Shown here in pieces: positions 1 through 10,679 of a stretch of 10,896 bases of DNA. How positions within the stretch are numbered: the stretch's first letter is position 1; the number at the start of each line of letters is the position of its first letter. The position numbers and the translations under genes are program-made. The DNA is taken from positions 1 through 10,896 of the forward strand of contig JAWBRA010000044.1 in assembly GCA_038844785.1 (NCBI GenBank). Reading direction: 5' to 3'. The stretch comes from Candidatus Caldarchaeum sp. (GTDB lineage Archaea; Thermoproteota; Nitrososphaeria_A; Caldarchaeales; Caldarchaeaceae). The notes under the pieces were generated by a model. The model ran no database searches. It worked only from the letters and a program-made list of their open reading frames with translations, and was not told the origin of the DNA.

Positions 1-361
1 CCATCAACACTCTAACATCATTCTTTGCACTCTTCGTCTTAATTCCAAGCCTTTCATACATCAGATTGAACAGCGTAAGCCGTCTGAGGTAGAAAACCCT
101 AACACCACGTCGTAAAACCTCTATGAACCCATCTGTAAGCTCTACGGGAACCGTATCCACGTAGAGCTCGTCACCTGCTTCCGCAGGAATATCGGTTATC
201 CGGCGGACTCGGCTGAAGTTTTCGCCATCGATGCTGTAAGCGTGGTAGTTCTCCTCAGTTTTCCTGCCACGTTTCTTGCTAGCAAGCCTATGTACGTCAG
301 CGAAAAACCTTCTTACTCTCCCGAGAGGCTTACAAACCTCTTTTCGGGGACAACTCCCCAT
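1..361 (-). CDS. IS110-family-like recombinase/transposase, N-terminal RuvC-like (DEDD) domain; runs off the left edge of the window
   Basis: Hand translation from ATG at 361 is open for 120 codons: MGSCPRKEVCKPLGRVRRFFADVHRL...GDELYVDTVPVELTDGFIEVLRRGVRVFYLRRLTLFNLMYERLGIKTKSAKNDVRVLM. FFADVH, LYVDT, GVRVFYL and KSAKNDVRVLM line up with IS110 motifs xGxDvxK, vxxEat, GxxVxvv and KTDxxDAxxLA. An SD-like GGAGGGGAGGGGTG lies just upstream. Confidence 0.7.
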   Translation of the reverse strand, partial: MGSCPRKEVCKPLGRVRRFFADVHRLASKKRGRKTEENYHAYSIDGENFSRVRRITDIPAEAGDELYVDTVPVELTDGFIEVLRRGVRVFYLRRLTLFNLMYERLGIKTKSAKNDVRVLM

Positions 362-390
362 CAGCGTACACCCCTCCCCTCCAGACACCT

Positions 391-578
391 GGCCTTGTCG
401 GCTCGAGGCGGCGTCCCAACCCCGAACCGCTCCCCGCCACGTCATATGACTGAGGCCCGGGAGCAGGCCCTCCCTTATCCCTGGGAGCAGGTCCTACAAC
501 CATGTCTCCTGACATGGCTCTCCCGGGAGGCCTAGGACGCCGGAGAACCATTCTCCAGCGGAAGGCCCCCCATCGGGG
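391..578 (-). ncRNA. Putative structured ncRNA upstream of the IS110-like gene (bridge/seek RNA candidate)
   Basis: About 67% GC over 391-570 (hand count). Nested complementary segments: 391-396/562-567, 409-416/535-542, 453-463/520-533 (with bulge), 470-474/483-487, 500-506/511-517, 542-547/551-556, plus palindrome GTCATATGAC at 441-450. Strand is inferred from the downstream gene. Confidence 0.5.
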
Positions 579-758
579 AAAATGTTGTAAGAAGTGTTCG
601 TCGAACACTACTTTGCCCAAAGCAGCAGAACCCATAGTAATCACAGTAGGCTGTTAAAACATGTGGGAAACACCGTAGGTTGTTGCAGTGTCGACAATGA
701 CTCTTGCCTCGACAGTTATCTAAAAATATGGAGCAGTATTACAACAGTTGTCTAAAAC

Positions 759-782
759 TATATAAATGTCAAATAATTGACA
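759..782. promoter_or_regulatory. TATA-like box with adjacent inverted repeat (possible operator)
   Basis: TATATAAA at 759-766 is immediately followed by TGTCAA-ATAA-TTGACA at 767-782. Confidence 0.35.
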
Positions 783-831
783 CAGCATGTTTGTCAGCTC
801 CTGAGCCGCTTTAACTACCTACACACCACCT

Positions 832-1108
832 TTATCCTCCGGCCACTATTATGAATACAACCCTGTCACTATAGGCTTGGTACAGCTTCTCAACTATGTT
901 GCTGCAGTGCGGGCACCACTCTATCAACAGTCCTGCCCATCAGGCTTGAAAGACCTGTTGGTTAAGCCGTTCACGTCAACCACCGTGAGCGTGAAATCCC
1001 GAGTTCTACGTCAGTGTTCTTGACAAGCTTGAAAGGCTGGAGAGAGGTGAGGCCGCTTCCAACGCTGTATGCACGTACAAGCCCTATCCCCACAGGTATC
1101 GTAGCCAT
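832..1108 (-). pseudogene. TlpA/redoxin (thioredoxin-fold CxxC) pseudogene
   Basis: Pieces in different minus frames: MATIPVGIGLVRAYSVGSG... (ATG 1108), RDFTLTVVDVNGLTNRSF (from 1001), and IEWCPHCSNIVEKLYQAYSDRVVFIIVAGG* (WCPHC at 904-918, stop 832-834). This matches the TlpA pattern PDFTL..dG...WCxxC...LY..Y.D.V. Frameshifted and truncated. Confidence 0.75.
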
Positions 1109-1138
1109 GAAGGAAAAATGGTTGCAAGCCTCTATATA
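1106..1138 (-). promoter_or_regulatory. Promoter-like motif, copy 1: TATATA-GAGGCTTGCAAC-CATTTT-N6-ATG
   Basis: 1115-1138 is 21/24 identical to 6201-6224, and both copies have a start codon at the same offset. Confidence 0.55.
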
Positions 1139-1353
1139 TTAACTAACTTTTAAACTCATTGAAGCCTAATCTTGTAAAAATTGTAATCGTTTAGCGGTTT
1201 AAAGCGAAATCCAGTATGTTAAATGCCTTTCAAGCTCATCTAACTCTCAAACCGTATAACTTTAGGCGCTCTTCCGTTAACCCATTTCATCCTGACGACA
1301 GAAATTGTTTGATCTTCCCCTAAAGAGGCACCGTCTATTCTGATGACTACACT

Positions 1354-1581
1354 GTGTCAATGAAAAGAGAATGGAAACATCCTCGCATGAAACTCGGATA
1401 GGGCCCATGGCTTCATCCAAGTGTCAATGAAAAGAGAATGGAAAAGTTTCCGTCAGGCCTCCCATCCCAGTGTTTCACCATGGGAATTTCAACTGTCAAT
1501 GAAAAGAGAATGGAAACAACTTCGTCCAGTTTCTCGGACTGTTCAACGGCCGATAACCCGCCTCGACTGTCAATGAAAGAG
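1354..1581 (+). CRISPR. Orphan CRISPR mini-array, repeat (G/C)TGTCAATGAAAAGAGAATGGAAA(C/A), 25 bp; 3 full repeats, 1 degenerate repeat, 3 spacers
   Basis: Repeats at 1354-1378, 1421-1445 and 1493-1517, partial CTGTCAATGAAAGAG at 1567-1581. Unique spacers of 42, 47 and 49 bp. The GAAAC 3' end and degenerate last repeat indicate + orientation. No cas genes in the window. Confidence 0.88.
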
Positions 1582-1633
1582 TTTCACCCGACATCCTCAA
1601 GCTTGCCGGCAAGCCGGAAAAAAGACCAACGAG

Positions 1634-1759
1634 GGTACTGTCGACTAGGTATTACGCCCCTTCCATCTTGGTTTTGGGCAGTGTGTTGTGTATGAGGGCT
1701 ATGGCTGTGGCTGTGAAGACTAGGGAGGCATAAGCCTCATCGAAAGGGGCTGTAGTCAT
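1634..1759 (-). mobile_element. Possible right-end remnant of an IS6-family element
   Basis: GGTACTGTCGAC at 1634-1645 resembles IS6 terminal inverted repeats (GG[CT][AT]CTGT). The minus-strand peptide ...ASLVFTATAIALIHNTLPKTKMEGA* (stop 1652-1654) ends just inside it and resembles a DDE transposase C-terminal helix. Confidence 0.35.
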
Positions 1760-2140
1760 GGAACCTGAAGAGCCTAGACATACTAATCGAAGGCATGCAT
1801 GAATAGGAGAGCAACATCTCAAGCCATAGGCTTAAGTTGACAATACCGGATACGCTTGCTGAAAGGATCTTAAGCAACTCCACACCAAAGCCATCAGGCC
1901 TCTAACCACCACCGTCTCCTCTACTAGGAAAACGGATACTCTACACTATCCTTGAATCCATCTCCAGACAGATACGTGACTCCCACCCACGAACGGCCTC
2001 AGAGCCCCTAGTCACACCCCTGAAGCTCAAGCCTAGGAAGATAGAGGCCCTACAAGACCAGCGGTTAGGCGTCCCCACCCCCAAAAACAAAAAAACACTA
2101 GGCCAAAGACCTTAAGTTAACAGAGACGTTCTGGAGAAGG

Positions 2141-2269
2141 GTAAGGCCCATGACCTTCTTCACAGACCTAAACTACGTCACGGTCAGGGAGTTCAGAAGC
2201 TTCAGCATAACAGTCCTAGACTACTGGGGTTATAACCATGTCTCCGTAAGCCTTGCCAGCAGTCTTTAA
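2141..2269 (+). pseudogene. IS3/IS481-like DDE (rve integrase core) transposase remnant; degraded upstream part may extend to about 1880
   Basis: VRPMTFFTDLNYVTVREFRSFSITVLDYWG resembles the rve start P....W..DITYi....g..yl..vlD.ys. Frameshifts and stops surround it. Confidence 0.45.
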
Positions 2270-2505
2270 ACATACCCGATAAAGGAGACCATATCGGTGT
2301 TGTTAGGGGGGAGAGGTTTAGGGGAAGATATGACATAACAGCGGGATGGAGGCTGGGGATTCCGAACATGTATAGGCCGTTGTTTCATTTTGAGGCTCAT
2401 GACGGGAGAGAGGTTAGAATAGCTGTTTGGGTTGAGGACAGAATACCATGTTTCAGCTATAAGGAGGATGAGGAGCCTCCGTTTGTTCCTTCAGGTTCGG
2501 CCTAA
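2236..2505 (+). pseudogene. Probable 3' fragment of an unidentified gene (open frame with no start at its 5' end)
   Basis: 90-codon stretch ...NIPDKGDHIGVVRGERFRGRYDITAGWRLGIPNMYRPLFHFEAHDGREVRIAVWVEDRIPCFSYKEDEEPPFVPSGSA*, with protein-like composition. Preceded by an in-frame stop at 2233-2235. Confidence 0.4.
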
Positions 2506-2621
2506 AATGGTATTGTAGTAAGTGTTGTCAAACGTTTATTAACAAAAGTCAACCATCTAATAATGTTGCTTCGTAGAGCGAGACTTTTATTACGGGTTCT
2601 TTAGCTATCTCTGCAAGTATT

Positions 2622-3344
2622 TTAAAAACTTTGGCCGCCTTCCCATATGGGAAGCAGGTCTAGCAGCTGGTTGAGAGATTTGATGACGTAGTCTGGTTTG
2701 ACGGGGCATGTTTTTCCTCCTGAACGGTCTAGTAGAACGGCTGTCATGCCTGCGGCTTTCGCCCCCGCTACATCGTTGACAGGGTCGTCCCCAACCATCA
2801 CACATTCAGATGGCTTGACATCAATCATCTCGGCGGCCAGCAGGAAAGGCCTTGGGCTGGGCTTGGCTTCGGGAATATCGTCACCAGCCACGACGATCAC
2901 TTTGAAGAAGCGGTTGAGGCCCTTCTTTTCCATCCTCATACGTTTCATGCCGTAAAGCCCGTCGGTGTTTGTTACAACTCCGAGGCTGTAGTGTTTGCTG
3001 AGTCTTTCGAGGACTTCGACGGTTTCGGGGAAAACCTCGCCCTTCATGAACTCCTCCCAGTAGGCCAGCGACCAGTTGCGCAACAACCCATCGTCAACCC
3101 TTCCGTCAAACCCCAGCTCCCACAAAACATGCATCCAGATCCTATCCCTGTCGTAGAGGCCCTGCATCTCCAAAACCCTCTCAACATGCTTTACAGTGCT
3201 GAAAACCATGTCCAAGTCCACGGAACCGTTGAGAAACCTAGCTATCTCCCCAGCAACCCTCCTCTGGGCGTGTGGAAGAACGCTCGCCGAGTCAACCAAT
3301 GTGTTGTCGAAGTCGAAGAAAACAGCCTTCAACCCACGCCCCAT
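2622..3344 (-). CDS. HAD-superfamily hydrolase, subfamily IA (phosphatase)
   Basis: Motif I FFDFDNTL, motif II VVTN, motif III EAKP, motif IV MVGDDPVND. Start is likely ATG 3344 (MGRGLKAVFFD); the ORF track extends to 3380. Confidence 0.93.
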   Translation of the reverse strand: MGRGLKAVFFDFDNTLVDSASVLPHAQRRVAGEIARFLNGSVDLDMVFSTVKHVERVLEMQGLYDRDRIWMHVLWELGFDGRVDDGLLRNWSLAYWEEFMKGEVFPETVEVLERLSKHYSLGVVTNTDGLYGMKRMRMEKKGLNRFFKVIVVAGDDIPEAKPSPRPFLLAAEMIDVKPSECVMVGDDPVNDVAGAKAAGMTAVLLDRSGGKTCPVKPDYVIKSLNQLLDLLPIWEGGQSF

Positions 3345-3471
3345 CAAAAAACCTGTAAATATTAACCCTGACGTCTTCATCCAAGCATGCTTCTAGAGAA
3401 AAACCAACACATGTTCTAACTATACGTACGCCATATCTCTTAAATCCAGCGTGTTCGGTGAGGTGGCTGAG

Positions 3472-5988
3472 ATGAGGCCGGCGGTGGCGTTTCTGCTTTT
3501 TTCAGCCGTTTTGTCCGGCTTTATCCTCGGCCAGCTAACCCCCCTCAACACATCGAACAACAAAACCTTTTACTCAACCATAACCGAAACCGTAACAACG
3601 ACTTCTCTAAGCACAACCACGGCAACTGTCAAAACATACCTTACATCAGCTGTGACAACAGCTGTGACAACAACTGTGGTGCGGAGGACGACAGAGACTG
3701 TTAGCCAGCTGGTTCCGCCGTCAGATTTGAGAGTGCAGGCCGCCGACTTTAGACAGATTGTGCTCAGCTGGCGGGACAACTCGGTGGGCGAGGATGGCTT
3801 CGTGATAGAGAGGAGCGAGGACGGTAAGGTCTTCTCAGCCATAGGTAGGACAGCCCCCAACGCTATCAGCTTCGCAGACGCGTCCGTTGAAAGGGAGAAA
3901 ACCTATCTCTACAGGGTAAGAGCCTTTCGTGGAAGCGTTGTAAGCAACGCGTCCAACACCGTCGTGGAAACGGCGACACCATATGGAATCCCTCTCAGCA
4001 ACTACTTCGGCGGCTTGGGAGAGGTTGAAACAGGCATTACTAACGCAGCGAACATGCGTGAGGGCTTTGCAGACATCTTCAACCCCTACTGGAACTGGCA
4101 ACCATGGCCTTCAGGCTCCAAAGGAGCCAGCGTGGAAGCATCCATAGACTTCCAAGAATACGTCTCAGGCGCCGGCAGCCAGAAAATCACTATAAAAAGG
4201 GATAACGAATCAGGCCCGGAAACAAGGCTGATCCTCTCGTCCTACGTTGTCAGGTCGAAAAACCCAAGATACTCGGTCTTCTACCCGCTTCCAGGCGACA
4301 AGGTTGTCTTCAGCTTCCAAGTCAAAACAGGAGAGAAGATTTCAAACATCCAGTATGAGGTTATGCTCTACTTCATTGTCCGCGACAACACGGGCAACGA
4401 GCGTTATCTCTCACCCCTTTACGTGCTGAGGTCGGGGAACTCGACACCATTCTGGACGAAAATCTCGTTCACTGCTGAGGCTCCTGCAAACCTAACGGCT
4501 GCGAGGGTCCTAATAGTTTTCACATGCGTGAGGTCCTGTATGGGAACGTTCTGGCTTGATGATTTTGTTTTGCGCACGGAGCCTGAGAAACGTCTCCCGC
4601 TGGTTGGCAGGGTTGGAAACAACTTCAAGCTTGCTGCAATACATGGGACAGTCGTGATGACCGAGCCTCTGGAGCTGGCTCAGAAATACGACCTGCTGCT
4701 CGGAGGCGGTTACTACAACACATACGTCAAAGGAATAAACCCACAGGTTGTCAGCCTCTACTACTTCAACGACCCGTCTCTCGTCGTCAGCGTTAGAAAC
4801 AGCTCAAACACACCTCCCTGCATGCTTCGCTGGAACGGCAGCAAACCTGTCTACGAGTTCAGACCCTACAGAACAATCTACAAGAAGGTCTTCAGCGAAT
4901 GGTTTCTAAGCTCAGCATCGTCTTCAAAATATCCACGGGAAGACGGCTCCGGATACTACATCGTCAGAGAAAAGTACTGTGAGTTTCTGCTGGACATTGG
5001 CCGCAAGGATGTTGTTGACGCGGCTCTGAAAGGTATTGAAAAGCTTCATGCCTACGCAGGCTATAACAATCCTCTACTGTCGCCCATCCTTTTCCACGAC
5101 AATCTTCCGAACTTCATTTATCTATGGAACATGGATGGGATGCCGCCGTCAAAGTATCCAGACCGCTCCGTAAGAAAGACCGTTTTGGAAAACATGCTCA
5201 GCCGGTTGAAATCAGAGCTTATAGACACGGGTCCTGAACGTAAAATCATAGCGAACATTGGGACGTATAGAGACGAAAGGTTCGAGCTTCTGCTGAGATT
5301 TGACTATGACGGAGTCTTCATCGAATACTTTACACAGATATTCAACAGAACCCATGACGACCAGCTGCTCTACAGACAGTTTCAAGTCCTAAACGCGTAT
5401 CCCGAGGATAGGTTTGTTATCCTAGTAGATGTCGTGCCCGCTGGTTATGTTGAACAATGGAATCAAGACCCGAGGCTTGTCCCTGCAGACGTTCAGAGAC
5501 GGTTCAACTTCGTCATAGCCTCCCTGTATCTCGTCAACAAGCCAAAGACATACGTCACGCTCAGAGGGGGTGAGGGTGAATATACAACACCTTCATACAT
5601 TCTGAAAGATTTCTACATCCCTGTCGGCAGCCCGTTGACAGGTATTGAAGTTGTTGGAGGAGATGAAAGAGGCGCGTTGTTTCTACGTCGTTACAGCAAC
5701 GGAATCGTTCTTCTGAACACTGCAAACGAAAGAACTTTCACATACTTTCTCGCCGAAAGACATCGTGACAGGGCGGGTAACGTGTTTCATGGCTTGATTG
5801 CGATACCGCCTCAGACCGGGTTTGTGCTTTATAGAGATGAGAGCCAGCGTTCTGCAGTTGCGTCAACCAATTTTCCAAACCCGCCGTTCTCAACGTTTGT
5901 TCACTACATGCATATGTTGGGGATGTTTTACATCGCTGTGGAACTTCTCTTCATAACAAAGCTTCTGGACAGTGCTAAAGATGCTTGA
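3472..5988 (+). CDS. Secreted/surface multidomain protein: signal/TM, Thr-rich linker, fibronectin type III, CBM4/9-like beta-sandwich, putative glycoside-hydrolase-like TIM barrel
   Basis: ATG 3472 follows GAGGTG. Hydrophobic N-terminus and a T-rich stretch. FN3 signature PSDL...LSWRDNS..EDGFVIERS...TYLYRVRAF. CBM-like ...GSQKITI...W.K.SFT...FWLDDF. C-terminal half has ILFHDN, YDGVFIEYF and RRYSNGIVLLN, typical of GHL15-like putative glycoside hydrolases. Confidence 0.8.
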   Translation: MRPAVAFLLFSAVLSGFILGQLTPLNTSNNKTFYSTITETVTTTSLSTTTATVKTYLTSAVTTAVTTTVVRRTTETVSQLVPPSDLRVQAADFRQIVLSWRDNSVGEDGFVIERSEDGKVFSAIGRTAPNAISFADASVEREKTYLYRVRAFRGSVVSNASNTVVETATPYGIPLSNYFGGLGEVETGITNAANMREGFADIFNPYWNWQPWPSGSKGASVEASIDFQEYVSGAGSQKITIKRDNESGPETRLILSSYVVRSKNPRYSVFYPLPGDKVVFSFQVKTGEKISNIQYEVMLYFIVRDNTGNERYLSPLYVLRSGNSTPFWTKISFTAEAPANLTAARVLIVFTCVRSCMGTFWLDDFVLRTEPEKRLPLVGRVGNNFKLAAIHGTVVMTEPLELAQKYDLLLGGGYYNTYVKGINPQVVSLYYFNDPSLVVSVRNSSNTPPCMLRWNGSKPVYEFRPYRTIYKKVFSEWFLSSASSSKYPREDGSGYYIVREKYCEFLLDIGRKDVVDAALKGIEKLHAYAGYNNPLLSPILFHDNLPNFIYLWNMDGMPPSKYPDRSVRKTVLENMLSRLKSELIDTGPERKIIANIGTYRDERFELLLRFDYDGVFIEYFTQIFNRTHDDQLLYRQFQVLNAYPEDRFVILVDVVPAGYVEQWNQDPRLVPADVQRRFNFVIASLYLVNKPKTYVTLRGGEGEYTTPSYILKDFYIPVGSPLTGIEVVGGDERGALFLRRYSNGIVLLNTANERTFTYFLAERHRDRAGNVFHGLIAIPPQTGFVLYRDESQRSAVASTNFPNPPFSTFVHYMHMLGMFYIAVELLFITKLLDSAKDA
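3647..3678 (+). repeat. Short in-frame 12-bp tandem repeat CAGCTGTGACAA (about 2.7 copies) encoding the AVTT linker
   Basis: Copies at 3647-3658 and 3659-3670, partial CAACTGTG at 3671-3678. Confidence 0.7.
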
Positions 5989-6194: not shown

Positions 6195-6224
6195 GTCTTG
6201 AAAACAGTTGCAAGCCTCCATATA
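6192..6224 (-). promoter_or_regulatory. Promoter-like motif, copy 2: TATATG-GAGGCTTGCAAC-TGTTTT-N6-GTG
   Basis: Near-identical to 1106-1138 with the same spacing to the start codon. Lies in the divergent intergenic region next to a regulator gene. Confidence 0.55.
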
Positions 6225-6278
6225 GCTCCGTCCATGAGGGAGCAGGTTTTTAAGCCCTGTTCACGGCTGTTTACAGGC

Positions 6279-6710
6279 TTGAGTGTGGACAGGAGGCGTG
6301 TCGAAGCCGAGCTGCGTGGCAGGAGCTTGGACGTTTTCCTCTACGTCATCAGGGCTGGAAGGCCTGTGGGTGTTAGGGATGTTCAAAGGGGTCTTGGGCT
6401 TTCAAGCCCCAGCGTAGCCCACCACCATCTGGAGAAGCTTCACTCGCTCGGCGTGCTGCAGAAAGACGATAAAGGCTCCTACACAGCTTCTGAGAAAGTA
6501 GACATATCTGTTCTCCAGCCCTTCATACTGGTTGGGGGAAAACTGCTGCCCCGCATGGCTTTCTACGCAGCCCTGTTCACAACCTTCACCACGCTCTACT
6601 TGGCCACCCACCTTACCTCACCAGACCCCTACGTCATCGCGCTCGGAGCATCCTCCTCGGCGGCAACCCTATACGAAGCTGTGCGCACATGGCGGAAAAA
6701 ACCATGGTAG
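6279..6710 (+). CDS. Winged helix-turn-helix transcriptional regulator with C-terminal membrane helices
   Basis: GVRDVQRGLGLSSPSVAHHHLEKLHSLGVL is a wHTH (ArsR/LexA-N-like), followed by two hydrophobic segments. TATA-like TTTTTAAG at 6247-6254 favours TTG 6279 or GTG 6285 over 6198. Confidence 0.85.
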   Translation: MSVDRRRVEAELRGRSLDVFLYVIRAGRPVGVRDVQRGLGLSSPSVAHHHLEKLHSLGVLQKDDKGSYTASEKVDISVLQPFILVGGKLLPRMAFYAALFTTFTTLYLATHLTSPDPYVIALGASSSAATLYEAVRTWRKKPW

Positions 6711-7096: not shown

Positions 7097-8454
7097 ATGA
7101 AGCTTAGGAGGATACGGCTGCGCAACTGGAAGTCCTTCAAAGACACGGTCGTCGAGCTGAACGACGGTCTCAACGTCCTAGTAGGCCCAAACGCCTCAGG
7201 AAAAACAAACCTGCTGGAAGCCTTCAAGTTCCTCAAGAAAGCCCTCGGCGACATCACCTCACCATACCACCCCATCTCGAATGGTGGTCCTACAGAAACA
7301 TCGTCTACGGCAACGACGAAACAAAGCCCATAACATTCGATCTTGAATTCGAATGCCCAGAAAACTACCGGACGTCCTATGAGATTGTTTTCGCCAGCAT
7401 AGAGGGCACGGTCAAACCCATCAAAGAAACAGTCAAGCTACATGGAATAGCAACAATCAGCAGAGAAGGCGACACATTAAAGATTGTTAAAGAGAAGGCG
7501 TTCATCAAAAAACACATAAACACCATTAGGGAATACATTATAGACCGCGTAAAAGAGTATGGGATCAAAATTGAGGATATAACTAGGGAAACCGAAACGG
7601 CGATCTTGGAAAGAATGCCAATAAGCATGTTACCGACATTATCATTCTTTGACATATTTTCACCCATAGGCTATATTGATCTCGCAGTGGAAAACAAAAT
7701 CGCATTAACTGGCATAAGAACACAGGAAATAATGTTCACGCTCAGTGGGCATGGAGCTCCCGCAGCAAGGATTAACTTGATAAGCCCTTACCTAGAAGAT
7801 AAAGATGAGTCGCTGTTCCGATATGTAATCAGTAATCTCAGGCTGTTTTTCGGAGGCGTATCATTCATCCGCCATCCTGACATGGGTAAGGTTCGAGAGC
7901 CCAGTATAATGGCTGGTTTTCCTTATACTCCCTCAGAAAGAGGCGAAACGCTCAACCTGCTGATCGCCCGGATGTTTCTGTCTGGTGCATTACCAGAAAG
8001 AATTGAAAATGCTCTGAAAAATCTGTTCCCCGATTTTGCAATCCAAATAAAGCCAACAGCTGACGGCCGCGTTTTTCTCTCTGTAACAGACAGGATTAAT
8101 GGGGCTGAGATACATCCGCCGAGCATACCCGACGGCTTTTACAAGCTTCTCCACATCCTGACGGCGGTTGAGAGCAAGCCCTCCATATTATGTATAGACG
8201 AGCTGGAGAACTCTCTTCACAGCGAAGTCTTAGAATACATTGTGCATGAATTGAAGAACTCTGGTGTTCTCTGCTTGGTTGCCACTCATTCGCCTGTTGT
8301 TGTTGACGTGGCTGGTTTGGAAAGCCTTTTGCTGGTGGAGAGGACATTTGAGGGCAGCGTTGTCAAGCGTGTGGAAAACCTCGAGCAAGTCAGGCGGTGG
8401 ATGAAGGAGAAGGGGTTGACGCCGAGCGAAATGTGGCTATACGGCCTACAATAA
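7097..8454 (+). pseudogene. ABC/SMC-like ATPase (AAA_21/AAA_15 type), about 452 aa, split by a single-base frameshift (real or sequencing error)
   Basis: Walker A GPNASGKTN is in 7097-7333. Signature-like IPDGF, Walker B/D-loop LCIDELENSLH and H-loop ATHSP are in the downstream frame, which is open from about 7273 (HLEWWSYRNIVYGND...) to 8454. One extra C in the C4 run at 7270-7273 fuses the two. Confidence 0.88.
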
Positions 8455-8957: not shown

Positions 8958-10679
8958 CTATACAGCTACTCTCATAGCCTTGTACTGTTGTCTGAGTTTG
9001 TTGAAGTCCGTCCCCATCGTCTTTATGTGCGTGTATGTTTTGGCTTTGTCTATCGCCCTCTCATACTCCTTGCCAAGCCTTGTGAAATATTTTTCCAGCC
9101 TGTCGAGCCAGAACCTTGCGCCTGCGTTGAGGATTGTGGTGGTTAGGATTCGGAGCAGGAAGCTGTCTTTGGAGATTTTGAAGGCTATGGATTCGGCCAT
9201 GCGTTTTGTGTTCCGCCAGCACACGTATATCAACGCCGCCTGAGCTGGCGTCAACTTTGCGTAAACATCCGTCAAAACGTTGGTTCCTCTGAGAGAGCCG
9301 AGGTTGACCAAAGCCATGGGCGTAACCGTGAAGTAGAGGTTGAGCGAGGCCATGTAGTTTATCAGCCCTATCGTATCCCAGCTGTCTTCGTCCGTCTCTC
9401 CTTCCTGTCCCAGGATTATGGTGTAGGCGGGTATCCAGTAGGCGGCGTTGTAAACCTTCTGGCCTTCGACAACTATCTCCGCCCACGTCCCATCCACACC
9501 AACTTTCAAAGGCTTCGCCTTGTTAGCCATGTGCTTGAGGATGAGCTTGTCGCTTCCAGTCTCAAGCCCAATCTGAACACCTATATGCTTGTCAGGCCCG
9601 GCTCCAACTATCTTGGCTACACCCATCGCAGCCTCAGGGTCTGCCGCAACAGGCGCCAGCGTGGCGTGCATCGGGTTGGCTTTGCTGACCCTAGACATGA
9701 CTGTTCTGTAAAGCCTGAAGATGGCTTCCTTGTTGGGCCAGAACTGCGGGTCGCGGACCATGTAAGCCCATTGATTGTCGGTCACAAACCATGCGTTGTC
9801 GATACCTCCCGTCAGGTTGACTTCCACCTCCTCTAAGACTTTCTCAGGCGGATAGTAGCGGAGAGGCCTTGTCGTTACCTCGCAGAAGTCGCAGTCTATT
9901 CCACATCCTCGCATTATCTCAGCTTGGCCGCTTATGGCTGGGTTTACTATGGTTGGGATATCTTCAATTTTGGGAAGCCTGTATTTCGAGGCTGGGTTCC
10001 GGCAGATGAACCTTCCTTCCGGGTCTTGGACGTAGCGGATGAAAGGCCTTCCGTAGGCGTCGAAGGTTGTTGTTTTGTAGCCGTGCATGAACATTGTTTT
10101 GTCGAGGCTGTCCTCAACCAGCTGTTCGAAAAGCAGATGCACAATGTCGTCCATCTCGCCTTGGACAACATAATCTATTCCAAGCCTCTCAATCTCCTCC
10201 TTCCTGTGCTCAAACTCCCATTCGCCGGAGCCTCCGACCACAACCTTCGCCCTACATCCCGTGTTTTTCTTCGCCACAGCTATCCGGGCCATCAGTTCTT
10301 CAAACTCTTTCGTCACCCAAGATTTTTCCCTGCCGGCGTTGTTGAACATAAGGGTCAAGGGGCCTAGACCGAGTGGGTCCATCGTGTTAACGCCGATTAT
10401 CTTCGTGTCGGGGCCGATGAAGCGAGAGACAAACCTTGGATGGGCTACAACTACTTCAAGCTTGGATTTCTTGACGAGGCAGGCCTCTATCTTTCTTATT
10501 GCGTAAGGAGCCAGCAAAGCTCTTCCATGAGAGTCGTAGGGCACGTCTGGAAGCGACAGATAATGGTAGATGGGGCTTGGAACGTATCTGACGGGTGCGC
10601 ATGGAAGAAAGCTTAGGAGAGGGAAGTCGTGAAACCTATGCCCCAGAGATGGGTCGAAGGTTAGAACAACCTGAACCAT
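8958..10679 (-). CDS. B12-binding radical SAM protein, GDGT ring synthase (Grs)-like tetraether lipid-modifying family
   Basis: CxxxCxxC in EIMRGCGIDCDFC. N-terminal APYAIRKIEA, MDPLGLGP, VVVGGSG and YVVQGE fit the cobalamin-binding-like domain of archaeal Grs-related enzymes. GLETGS motif present. Confidence 0.85.
   Translation of the reverse strand: MVQVVLTFDPSLGHRFHDFPLLSFLPCAPVRYVPSPIYHYLSLPDVPYDSHGRALLAPYAIRKIEACLVKKSKLEVVVAHPRFVSRFIGPDTKIIGVNTMDPLGLGPLTLMFNNAGREKSWVTKEFEELMARIAVAKKNTGCRAKVVVGGSGEWEFEHRKEEIERLGIDYVVQGEMDDIVHLLFEQLVEDSLDKTMFMHGYKTTTFDAYGRPFIRYVQDPEGRFICRNPASKYRLPKIEDIPTIVNPAISGQAEIMRGCGIDCDFCEVTTRPLRYYPPEKVLEEVEVNLTGGIDNAWFVTDNQWAYMVRDPQFWPNKEAIFRLYRTVMSRVSKANPMHATLAPVAADPEAAMGVAKIVGAGPDKHIGVQIGLETGSDKLILKHMANKAKPLKVGVDGTWAEIVVEGQKVYNAAYWIPAYTIILGQEGETDEDSWDTIGLINYMASLNLYFTVTPMALVNLGSLRGTNVLTDVYAKLTPAQAALIYVCWRNTKRMAESIAFKISKDSFLLRILTTTILNAGARFWLDRLEKYFTRLGKEYERAIDKAKTYTHIKTMGTDFNKLRQQYKAMRVAV

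Follow-up and report, generated by a model that had tools for sequence, protein, structure and literature searches.

The window, i.e., the whole stretch of DNA that was analysed (10,896 nt), is the start of contig C44 of a genome of 1.74 Mb in 57 contigs. The following features were identified in the window.

2..361, minus strand: first 120 codons of a gene for a predicted TasR/IS110-fold protein, with an ATG at 359-361; the gene runs off the contig start
320..349, minus strand: conserved start-region hairpin (CCCCGA-AA-AGAGG / 8-nt loop / CCUCU-CGGG), at codons 5-14 of the window copy
362..598, minus strand: stretch of ~235 nt read as a GC-rich structured 5' leader of class A, from fold, composition, and comparison with L047
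599..995, no strand assigned: repeated flank module, common to contigs C1 and C35 and strain L047
1356-1516, plus strand: three exact 22-nt repeats
2622-3380, minus strand: HAD hydrolase
3451-5988, plus strand: 845-aa ORF with no Pfam family at E 0.001 or better
6198-6710, strand not given: HTH protein
7606-8454, strand not given: AAA_21/AbiEii-like ATPase, followed by a 157-aa ORF without a match
8958-10679, minus strand: radical SAM protein

The 22-nt repeats (GTCAATGAAAAGAGAATGGAAA) are placed 67 and 72 nt apart, and a partial fourth repeat was found at 1563-1578. No exact copies are expected by chance. By sequence, they appear to be a short CRISPR-like array beside the cassette to which the gene fragment and the leader belong. 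None of the window's genes was recognised as a cas gene.

On the minus strand, frame 2..445 has no stop as far as the contig start. The preliminary description had reported a 120-codon ORF running off the contig edge behind a region of ~67% GC, and both were confirmed: exactly 120 codons are counted from the ATG at 359-361, and positions 391-578 contain 67.6% G+C. The G+C content was 63.7% in 362-598, 48.5% in the CDS part, and 49.7% in the whole window. The fragment starts MGSCPRKEVCKPLGRVRRFF... (i.e., MGSCPRKEVCKPLGRVRRFFADVHR...), and the starts of homologues coincide with the same ATG, e.g., P0029 with MENCPRKEAYKPLGRE... It codes for the RuvC-like N-terminal domain, with a YADVH-type D, TDGE, and GDELYVD. 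The remainder of the gene sits on contig C22, which was linked via strain L047 (C22 vs L047, 99% identity).

The full-length protein (P0002) has 285 aa and was read from a sister copy on contig C14. No Pfam family was matched by the full protein. The IS110 and Transposase_20 domains, which were expected from the preliminary description, stayed below cut-off; PF01548 and PF02371 matched 0/2 proteins, and PF01548 reached only 14-16 bits in 4 of 20 distant members, sub-threshold to the cut-off of 29. In the own genome, no canonical IS110 (PF01548) was detected above the cut-off. The sole match in NCBIfam was RNase HII at E 0.029, which was taken as chance, and PHROGs gave weak matches only. Sequence and profile searches of PDB found no IS110 or TasR, and an hhalign comparison with a small IS110 alignment of poor quality (6 sequences) yielded no match.

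The AlphaFold2 model, built from 76 family sequences, was of high confidence (pLDDT 93.8, pTM 0.88). Through this sister-copy model, the proposed RuvC-like fold was found for the rest of the CDS. The top match in Foldseek was TIGR-TasR (9mty, E 5.4e-7), followed by the bridge recombinases ISCro4 and IS621. In VIA-align, TasR (9mty_A) scored Z 16.2, with 246 of 292 residues aligned to model residues 3-281 at an rmsd of 3.4. IS621 and ISCro4 (8wt6, 8wt9, 9t56) scored Z 14.4-14.6 over the whole length (253-257 residues aligned), TasH scored Z 12.0-12.8 over residues 112-281, and Nop56/58/Nop5 scored Z 6.8-8.2 over residues 117-281 only. An IS110 cluster of the ESM Atlas was matched at TM 0.70. 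The profile-profile comparison with 37 canonical IS110 proteins gave a probability of 30.8% (E 5.2e-4), in the C-terminal domain only.

The acidic residues D8, D31, and D55 are each conserved in 75/76 family sequences, and D100 in 76/76. [quoted passage not shown] Two residues after K95, the IS110-type D is replaced by A or S in the close group and is present in 14/76. The catalytic serine S266 of IS110, invariant in 37/37 IS110 sequences, aligns to an unconserved position of the family, and no conserved Ser was found across residues 229-238. In the model, the predicted domain order is a RuvC-like nuclease fold at the N-terminus, a coiled coil, and a Nop-like RNA-binding domain. This combination of Nop domain, coiled coil, and N-terminal RuvC fold is that of TasR, and the serine-bearing C-terminal Tnp domain of IS110 members (PF02371) was not found. 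From the structure matches, the kept Asp residues, and the unconserved Ser position, the protein therefore looks like a TasR/IS110-fold protein, possibly a nuclease, without the recombinase nucleophile. Of the IS110-like RuvC protein proposed earlier, the fold common to IS110 recombinases and TasR was upheld, but the catalytic serine and the Pfam thresholds of IS110 were not.

The gene belongs to a multicopy family. Window positions 1-700 had 19 further matches within the own genome, and tblastn with the 285-aa protein gave 28 HSPs, which are spread over 23 contigs and in many cases lie at the end of a contig. The 3' end of the cassette was found in 32-34 copies, exceeding the number of genes. 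In the protein database, 162 relatives were detected, every one named 'hypothetical', and those with a taxon label came from Caldarchaeum or 'Nitrososphaerota' MAGs, except for one Thermofilaceae MAG. Among 1.84 billion clusters, there were 97 representatives of the family. Relatives are encoded at 90 places in GTDB genomes; the best 80 of the 90 comprise 78 distinct loci, and one MAG supplies more than 35 of them. When 200 further genomes of the phylum were searched with a profile, the family was detected in 13/25 genomes of the window's own order, the Caldarchaeales, and in 0/175 of other orders.

The number of TasR-like gene copies per genome ranges from 1 to more than 12, as for insertion sequences. 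One copy lies within a 3026-bp insertion (C14:26749-29774), upstream of the S-adenosylmethionine synthetase gene, which is absent from 7/7 relatives compared. The insertion is a composite of the cassette and other high-copy repeats, including a module of 80-300 nt present at up to ~37 copies. The Caldarchaeales cassette is probably mobile. In the literature covered on TIGR-Tas, TasR/tigRNA, and IS110 bridge RNA in archaea, the Caldarchaeales family was not found; preprint supplements may list it. The parts of the supplements of Faure et al. 2025 (PMC12045711) that were covered held no Caldarchaeales record.

The region upstream of the gene is strongly structured. On the gene-sense strand, positions 300-620 folded at -156.6 kcal/mol, against -128.6 +/- 5.5 in shuffles (z -5.1, 0/100 as good), into many nested and branching helices. 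The opposite strand folded at -126.4 kcal/mol (z -4.8); because it is ~30 kcal/mol less stable, the G-U pairs favour the gene's strand. The nested and branching stems noticed at first were thus real at z -5.1 on that strand, and the RNA is indeed multibranched rather than arranged as two simple internal loops. In strain L047 (96% identity), 673 additional bases lie between window positions 587 and 599, so the leader in the window is a shortened version. Fuller leader copies have ~450 nt or more.

By sequence, the leaders were grouped into class A and class B, and the multibranched folds of the two are similar. In one 9-bp helix, the classes differ on both sides at 5 positions and the pairing is kept. 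A loose anchor search for this helix found 9 true variants among 47 matches, the rest being mostly chance, and the pair count in alignment A9 is confounded by a one-column shift between the classes. The covariance model R2 of the leader 5' domain (window 478-598) gave 12 matches in 81 sources, i.e., 5 seeds and 7 from other genomes, all in gene orientation. In its alignment, 91.8% of cells pair vs 85.1% in shuffles (0/500 reach), and 12/36 pairs change both sides. This covariation is moderate support because the alignment is model-fitted and the sequences are few and related. Covariation upstream of homologues, which the preliminary description had proposed to look for, was accordingly found to a modest degree with R2, but many homologues have no leader: among 15 N-terminus copies of the own genome, 10 have a GC-rich upstream region and 5 do not, and a 60-nt bin of at least 68% G+C within 480 nt upstream was present in just 8/29 loci profiled. 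No Rfam family was found in window 1-3000 (one chance match at E 0.44), and in 7 related loci only tRNA was detected.

At the end of the leader, the start-region hairpin is nearly identical in 11/11 motif copies of the genome, all of which precede family genes, and it is kept even where the encoded proteins are only ~30% identical. In sister copies, it lies just before a GTG start, over the purine-rich ribosome-binding stretch. Start codons are inconsistent, and in several copies neither ATG nor GTG nor TTG occurs close to the conserved frame. Contigs of one metatranscriptome run matched the window only at 121-271 and 738-782. From its position alone, the leader would most likely control mRNA stability and translation, since its end is formed by the conserved hairpin, which spans the ribosome-binding stretch and the start.

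In class B leaders, e.g., L006:1761-1880 (minus strand), a 9-codon upstream ORF was observed (ATG ACA GAT ATC CCG AAA AGA GGC TTA TAA). In an alignment read by eye, it terminates in the loop of the start-region hairpin. Its translation might be coupled to the opening of the hairpin.

The leader is not tied to the TasR-like gene. Its position is the 5' end of the cassette, whichever gene is first. On C6, L043, and L054, it stands ahead of three accessory ORFs, which themselves precede the TasR-like gene, and in L043 and L054 it is ~1.3 kb upstream of that gene. On C27 (1590-1820, minus strand), a class B leader precedes an unrelated small ORF with a predicted membrane segment and CxxC..CxxC; the next ORF has a GPTGSGKT P-loop.

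The three accessory ORFs (~148, 90-99, and 195-201 aa) were observed to separate the leader from the TasR-like gene in 12 related loci, among which the matches of L054 and L055 are identical, and on C6 of the own genome, where pieces of the leader stand ahead of these ORFs. Examples located by sequence matches, strand not given, are as follows.

L043:146-1489: three accessory ORFs
L054:147-1497: three accessory ORFs
C6:1367-2577, own genome: three accessory ORFs

No Pfam, NCBIfam, or PDB sequence match was found for these ORFs, and the AF2 model of the 201-aa ORF was poor (pLDDT 54.2). The largest has an SPPYG motif and the middle one a DPMxGxGG-like motif, which may be reminiscent of amino-methyltransferase motifs.

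Cassettes of the 'X' subtype (C1, C2, C3, C6, C12, C28, and C47) were observed to end ~40-60 nt before a tRNA gene. Most of the 9 X-type tails show a tRNA-like start such as GGGxxxGTAGCTCAG, and in L025 a tRNA lies ~280 nt past the stop. The proximity to tRNA could mean that the cassettes land there by preference, or it could point to co-processing.

The GC-rich stretch may also be considered at the DNA level, as a patchwork of hairpin repeats (MITE-like), or as an independent small RNA gene, in either case with no role in expression. As the flank module at 599..995 shows, repeats are arranged as a mosaic on the 5' side of the cassette. Pieces are combined differently among copies, solo pieces occur on C27, C20, and C6, and the 673 nt that separate L047 from the window fit the same picture. 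However, all 12 R2 matches have the gene orientation, the leader 5' domain covaries, and the gain of 30 kcal/mol from G-U pairs falls on the gene's strand. In addition, the spacing from leader to start-region hairpin was fixed in the 10 leader-bearing upstream regions aligned. A patchwork or a separate RNA gene is therefore rather unlikely, and positions 362-598 are read as the structured 5' leader of the cassette, not as a guide.

A second structured RNA was found at the other end of the gene. It is a single unit within a conserved stretch of ~165 nt, which begins in the last codons, extends to a T-run, and is present in 32-34 copies in the own genome. The unit can also be read in 3' UTRs at loci of many genomes. 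The conserved 3' tails end with GCCTCCAGCCAAAC..CTCCCCT, followed by the T-run. The outer stem P0, read by eye, pairs GGGAAAAACCC with GGGUUUCC, and a second stem stacked on it pairs GGCCGG with CCGGCC. There follow two internal-loop strands, each with a 9-nt segment varying from copy to copy. The motifs flanking the 9-nt segments covary mutually, e.g., AUGAC..AAC twice or GGCUC..UAAU twice. The sequence of the inner hairpin is wholly different between lineages, and its pairing is always kept.

With the covariance model R1 of this 3' unit, the unit was found in 60/74 sources, in gene orientation and immediately behind the gene. In the R1 alignment, which is model-fitted and takes in 10 weaker antisense shadows, 94.2% of cells pair vs 72.8% in shuffles (0/500 reach). 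Both sides change in 24/27 pairs, including all 9 of the inner hairpin, and slid controls gave 39-55% pairing. RNAalifold on the plain MAFFT alignment of 3' units recovered the outer stem only. R1 detected 12 units in the own genome, one per 3' UTR. No tandem array was seen, as 59/60 gene-sense sources have one unit and L080 has two, ~470 nt apart. By analogy, the unit appears to follow the structure grammar of stem-loop tigRNA units of TIGR-Tas, as given in the parts of Faure et al. 2025 (PMC12045711) and of the TIGRFinder preprint that were covered. A guide unit of TIGR-Tas has two spacers of 8-12 nt, each set between a box C and a box D motif, and these motifs covary from one half to the other. 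The dual-guide-like RNA of the family thus looks to be placed 3' of the gene, outside the window.

The preliminary description had considered the upstream RNA to be of the bridge type, i.e., a bridge-RNA-like guide of an IS110-type recombinase, with loops pairing to target and donor DNA. In IS621, the bridge RNA comes from the gene's strand of the 5' non-coding end. The upstream RNA of this family has the same position, it is conserved and structured, and the protein beside it has an IS110-like fold (Z 14.4-14.6). Against this, the protein has no conserved counterpart of the catalytic Ser, and it failed the PF01548 and PF02371 cut-offs as described above. Within a leader class, copies differ by scattered point changes and not by guide-like blocks, and the multibranched leader carries no copy-specific loop segments. 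It also heads genes unrelated to the family and is absent from many family members, whereas an RNA with two guide-like segments was found at the other end of the gene. A bridge RNA at 362-598 is therefore improbable. The broader idea of an RNA-guided module held in part: the system looks to be of an RNA-guided type with an IS110-like fold, closest to TasR, but the upstream RNA is read as a leader and not as the guide.

That part of the GC-rich stretch is coding, as an N-terminal extension in the 148-codon frame 2..445, can hardly be credited. In its favour, this frame has an ATG and stays open up to 445, and the reading frame that crosses the hairpin (PRKEAYKPLGRE) is without a stop in 11/11 copies. 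Against it, nothing in 40 aligned homologues corresponds to the 28 additional residues (MTWRGAVRGWDAASSRQGQVSGGEGCTL), and the same frame is closed in class B copies by a TGA just upstream of the hairpin (read by eye).

Targets of the variable 9-nt segments were searched. In the own genome, no composite site of paired 9-mers matched at 18/18, and sites of at least 15/18 numbered 244 vs 169, 220, and 185 in three controls. Over the 110 nt that follow the end of the cassette, no enrichment was found (6.65 vs 6.62; 95/200 shuffles as high), nor was any found in each unit's own locus (13.16 vs 12.99). Identical variable segments occur in copies at different loci.

The reconstructed empty site of the C14 insertion, first matched by eye as a target, scored 11/18, and this match was dropped because 1683/2000 shuffles score as well. 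The best own-locus composite matches were observed at L054:2996-3016 and L037:1691-1711, both 15/18 and ~570 nt downstream of the unit. One of them is at the end of a truncated gatD-like frame and the other covers the start of an Alba-like gene. With 25 units, two cases of this kind are near chance expectation.

The reading that we prefer, with a probability of about 0.6, is that 2-361 is the start of a decayed copy of a multicopy TasR-like cassette, 362-598 is its structured leader, and the guide-like RNA is the 3' unit. It joins the fold, the multicopy state, and the two RNA structures with their positions, which were observed here. The cassette would encode a TasR-like protein without the IS110 serine, and 362-598 would be the 3' part of a GC-rich, heat-stable 5' leader on the gene's strand. 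By analogy with TIGR-TasR, a dimer of the protein may hold the RNA of the 3' unit, and this RNA may read 9+9 nt on two DNA strands. For this, we infer that the cassette is transcribed, binds its RNA, targets DNA, and moves. The 3' part of the window copy lies at the end of contig C22, and the 5' half of the 3' unit is deleted there. Because its leader is shortened and its 3' unit is half deleted, the window copy is decayed at both ends. Given the half-deleted unit, it is probably inactive.

A bolder and quite tentative possibility is that the cassettes are mobile single-guide TasR elements, i.e., an RNA-guided nuclease, a dual-segment guide, a portable leader, and sometimes three accessory genes, which spread within Caldarchaeales genomes without the recombinase serine. 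If so, they would represent a form, still alive today, that stands between IS110 transposons and TIGR-Tas. In that case, the element may have a second functional RNA in its leader, e.g., one that serves processing, packaging, or control, and not a plain UTR.

To our knowledge, TIGR-Tas and the IS110 bridge recombinases are recent discoveries, and the evolutionary link between them has been argued from structures alone. The archaeal family combines a TasR-like fold, IS-like copy numbers, and one guide-like unit that forms part of the 3' UTR. It would widen the known range of TIGR-Tas/IS110-related systems and would allow one to test whether the gene of an RNA-guided nuclease can behave as a mobile element. 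For the window itself, the meaning is that the conspicuous GC-rich RNA is read as the leader, and that the copy is truncated at both ends. The part of the TIGRFinder preprint that was covered gives the flanking motifs as CCA/CGA/CTA/CAA and TG/CG (bioRxiv 10.64898/2026.09.09.750476). Published array finders would probably miss the flanking motifs of this family.

Structured mRNA leaders that control translation exist for transposase and mobile nuclease genes. The Caldarchaeales leader resembles them in that a selfish gene has a stable fold-back at its ribosome-binding and start region. However, it is much longer (~235 nt, and ~450 nt or more in its fuller form), multibranched, and portable between genes.

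Archaeal Nop5 proteins of box C/D sRNPs have a fibrillarin-binding N-terminal domain and act with L7Ae and a K-turn (C/D box) RNA. They share with the family the coiled coil and the Nop-like domain, together with two short guide or guide-like segments in a pseudo-symmetric RNA. However, the family aligns weakly to Nop5, over the C-terminal two thirds only. No canonical C/D boxes (UGAUGA/CUGA) or K-turn were seen on reading the 3' units of the family. The acidic RuvC residues, which are lost in Nop5 (Vaysset et al. 2024, bioRxiv 10.1101/2024.06.21.599552), are kept in the family.

The IS110-family bridge recombinases, reportedly described by Durrant et al. in 2024, share the whole-length fold with the family. 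Both are multicopy, a structured RNA occurs in the non-coding 5' end of each, and the K..D motif of the RuvC helix is common to them in an alignment read by eye. The family differs from IS110 in having no catalytic serine, no Pfam membership, and no two-loop bridge RNA.

TasR of TIGR-Tas is the closest known system. The sizes are similar (285 aa in the family vs 292 aa in TasR), the RuvC-like, coiled-coil, and Nop-like parts are predicted in the same order, and TasR is the best structural match. In both systems, the adjacent RNA has an outer stem, two variable segments of ~9 nt, covarying flanks, and an inner hairpin. However, the family has one unit per gene, starting in the last codons and lying in the 3' UTR, whereas TIGR is an array in the part of the published description that was covered. 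The flanks are ..GAC/GUC before and AAC after the segment in the family, whereas the published units, to the same extent, have CCA/UG-type boxes. Unlike TIGR-Tas, the family gene is multicopy in the manner of an insertion sequence and carries a long GC-rich 5' leader, with three accessory ORFs in some copies.
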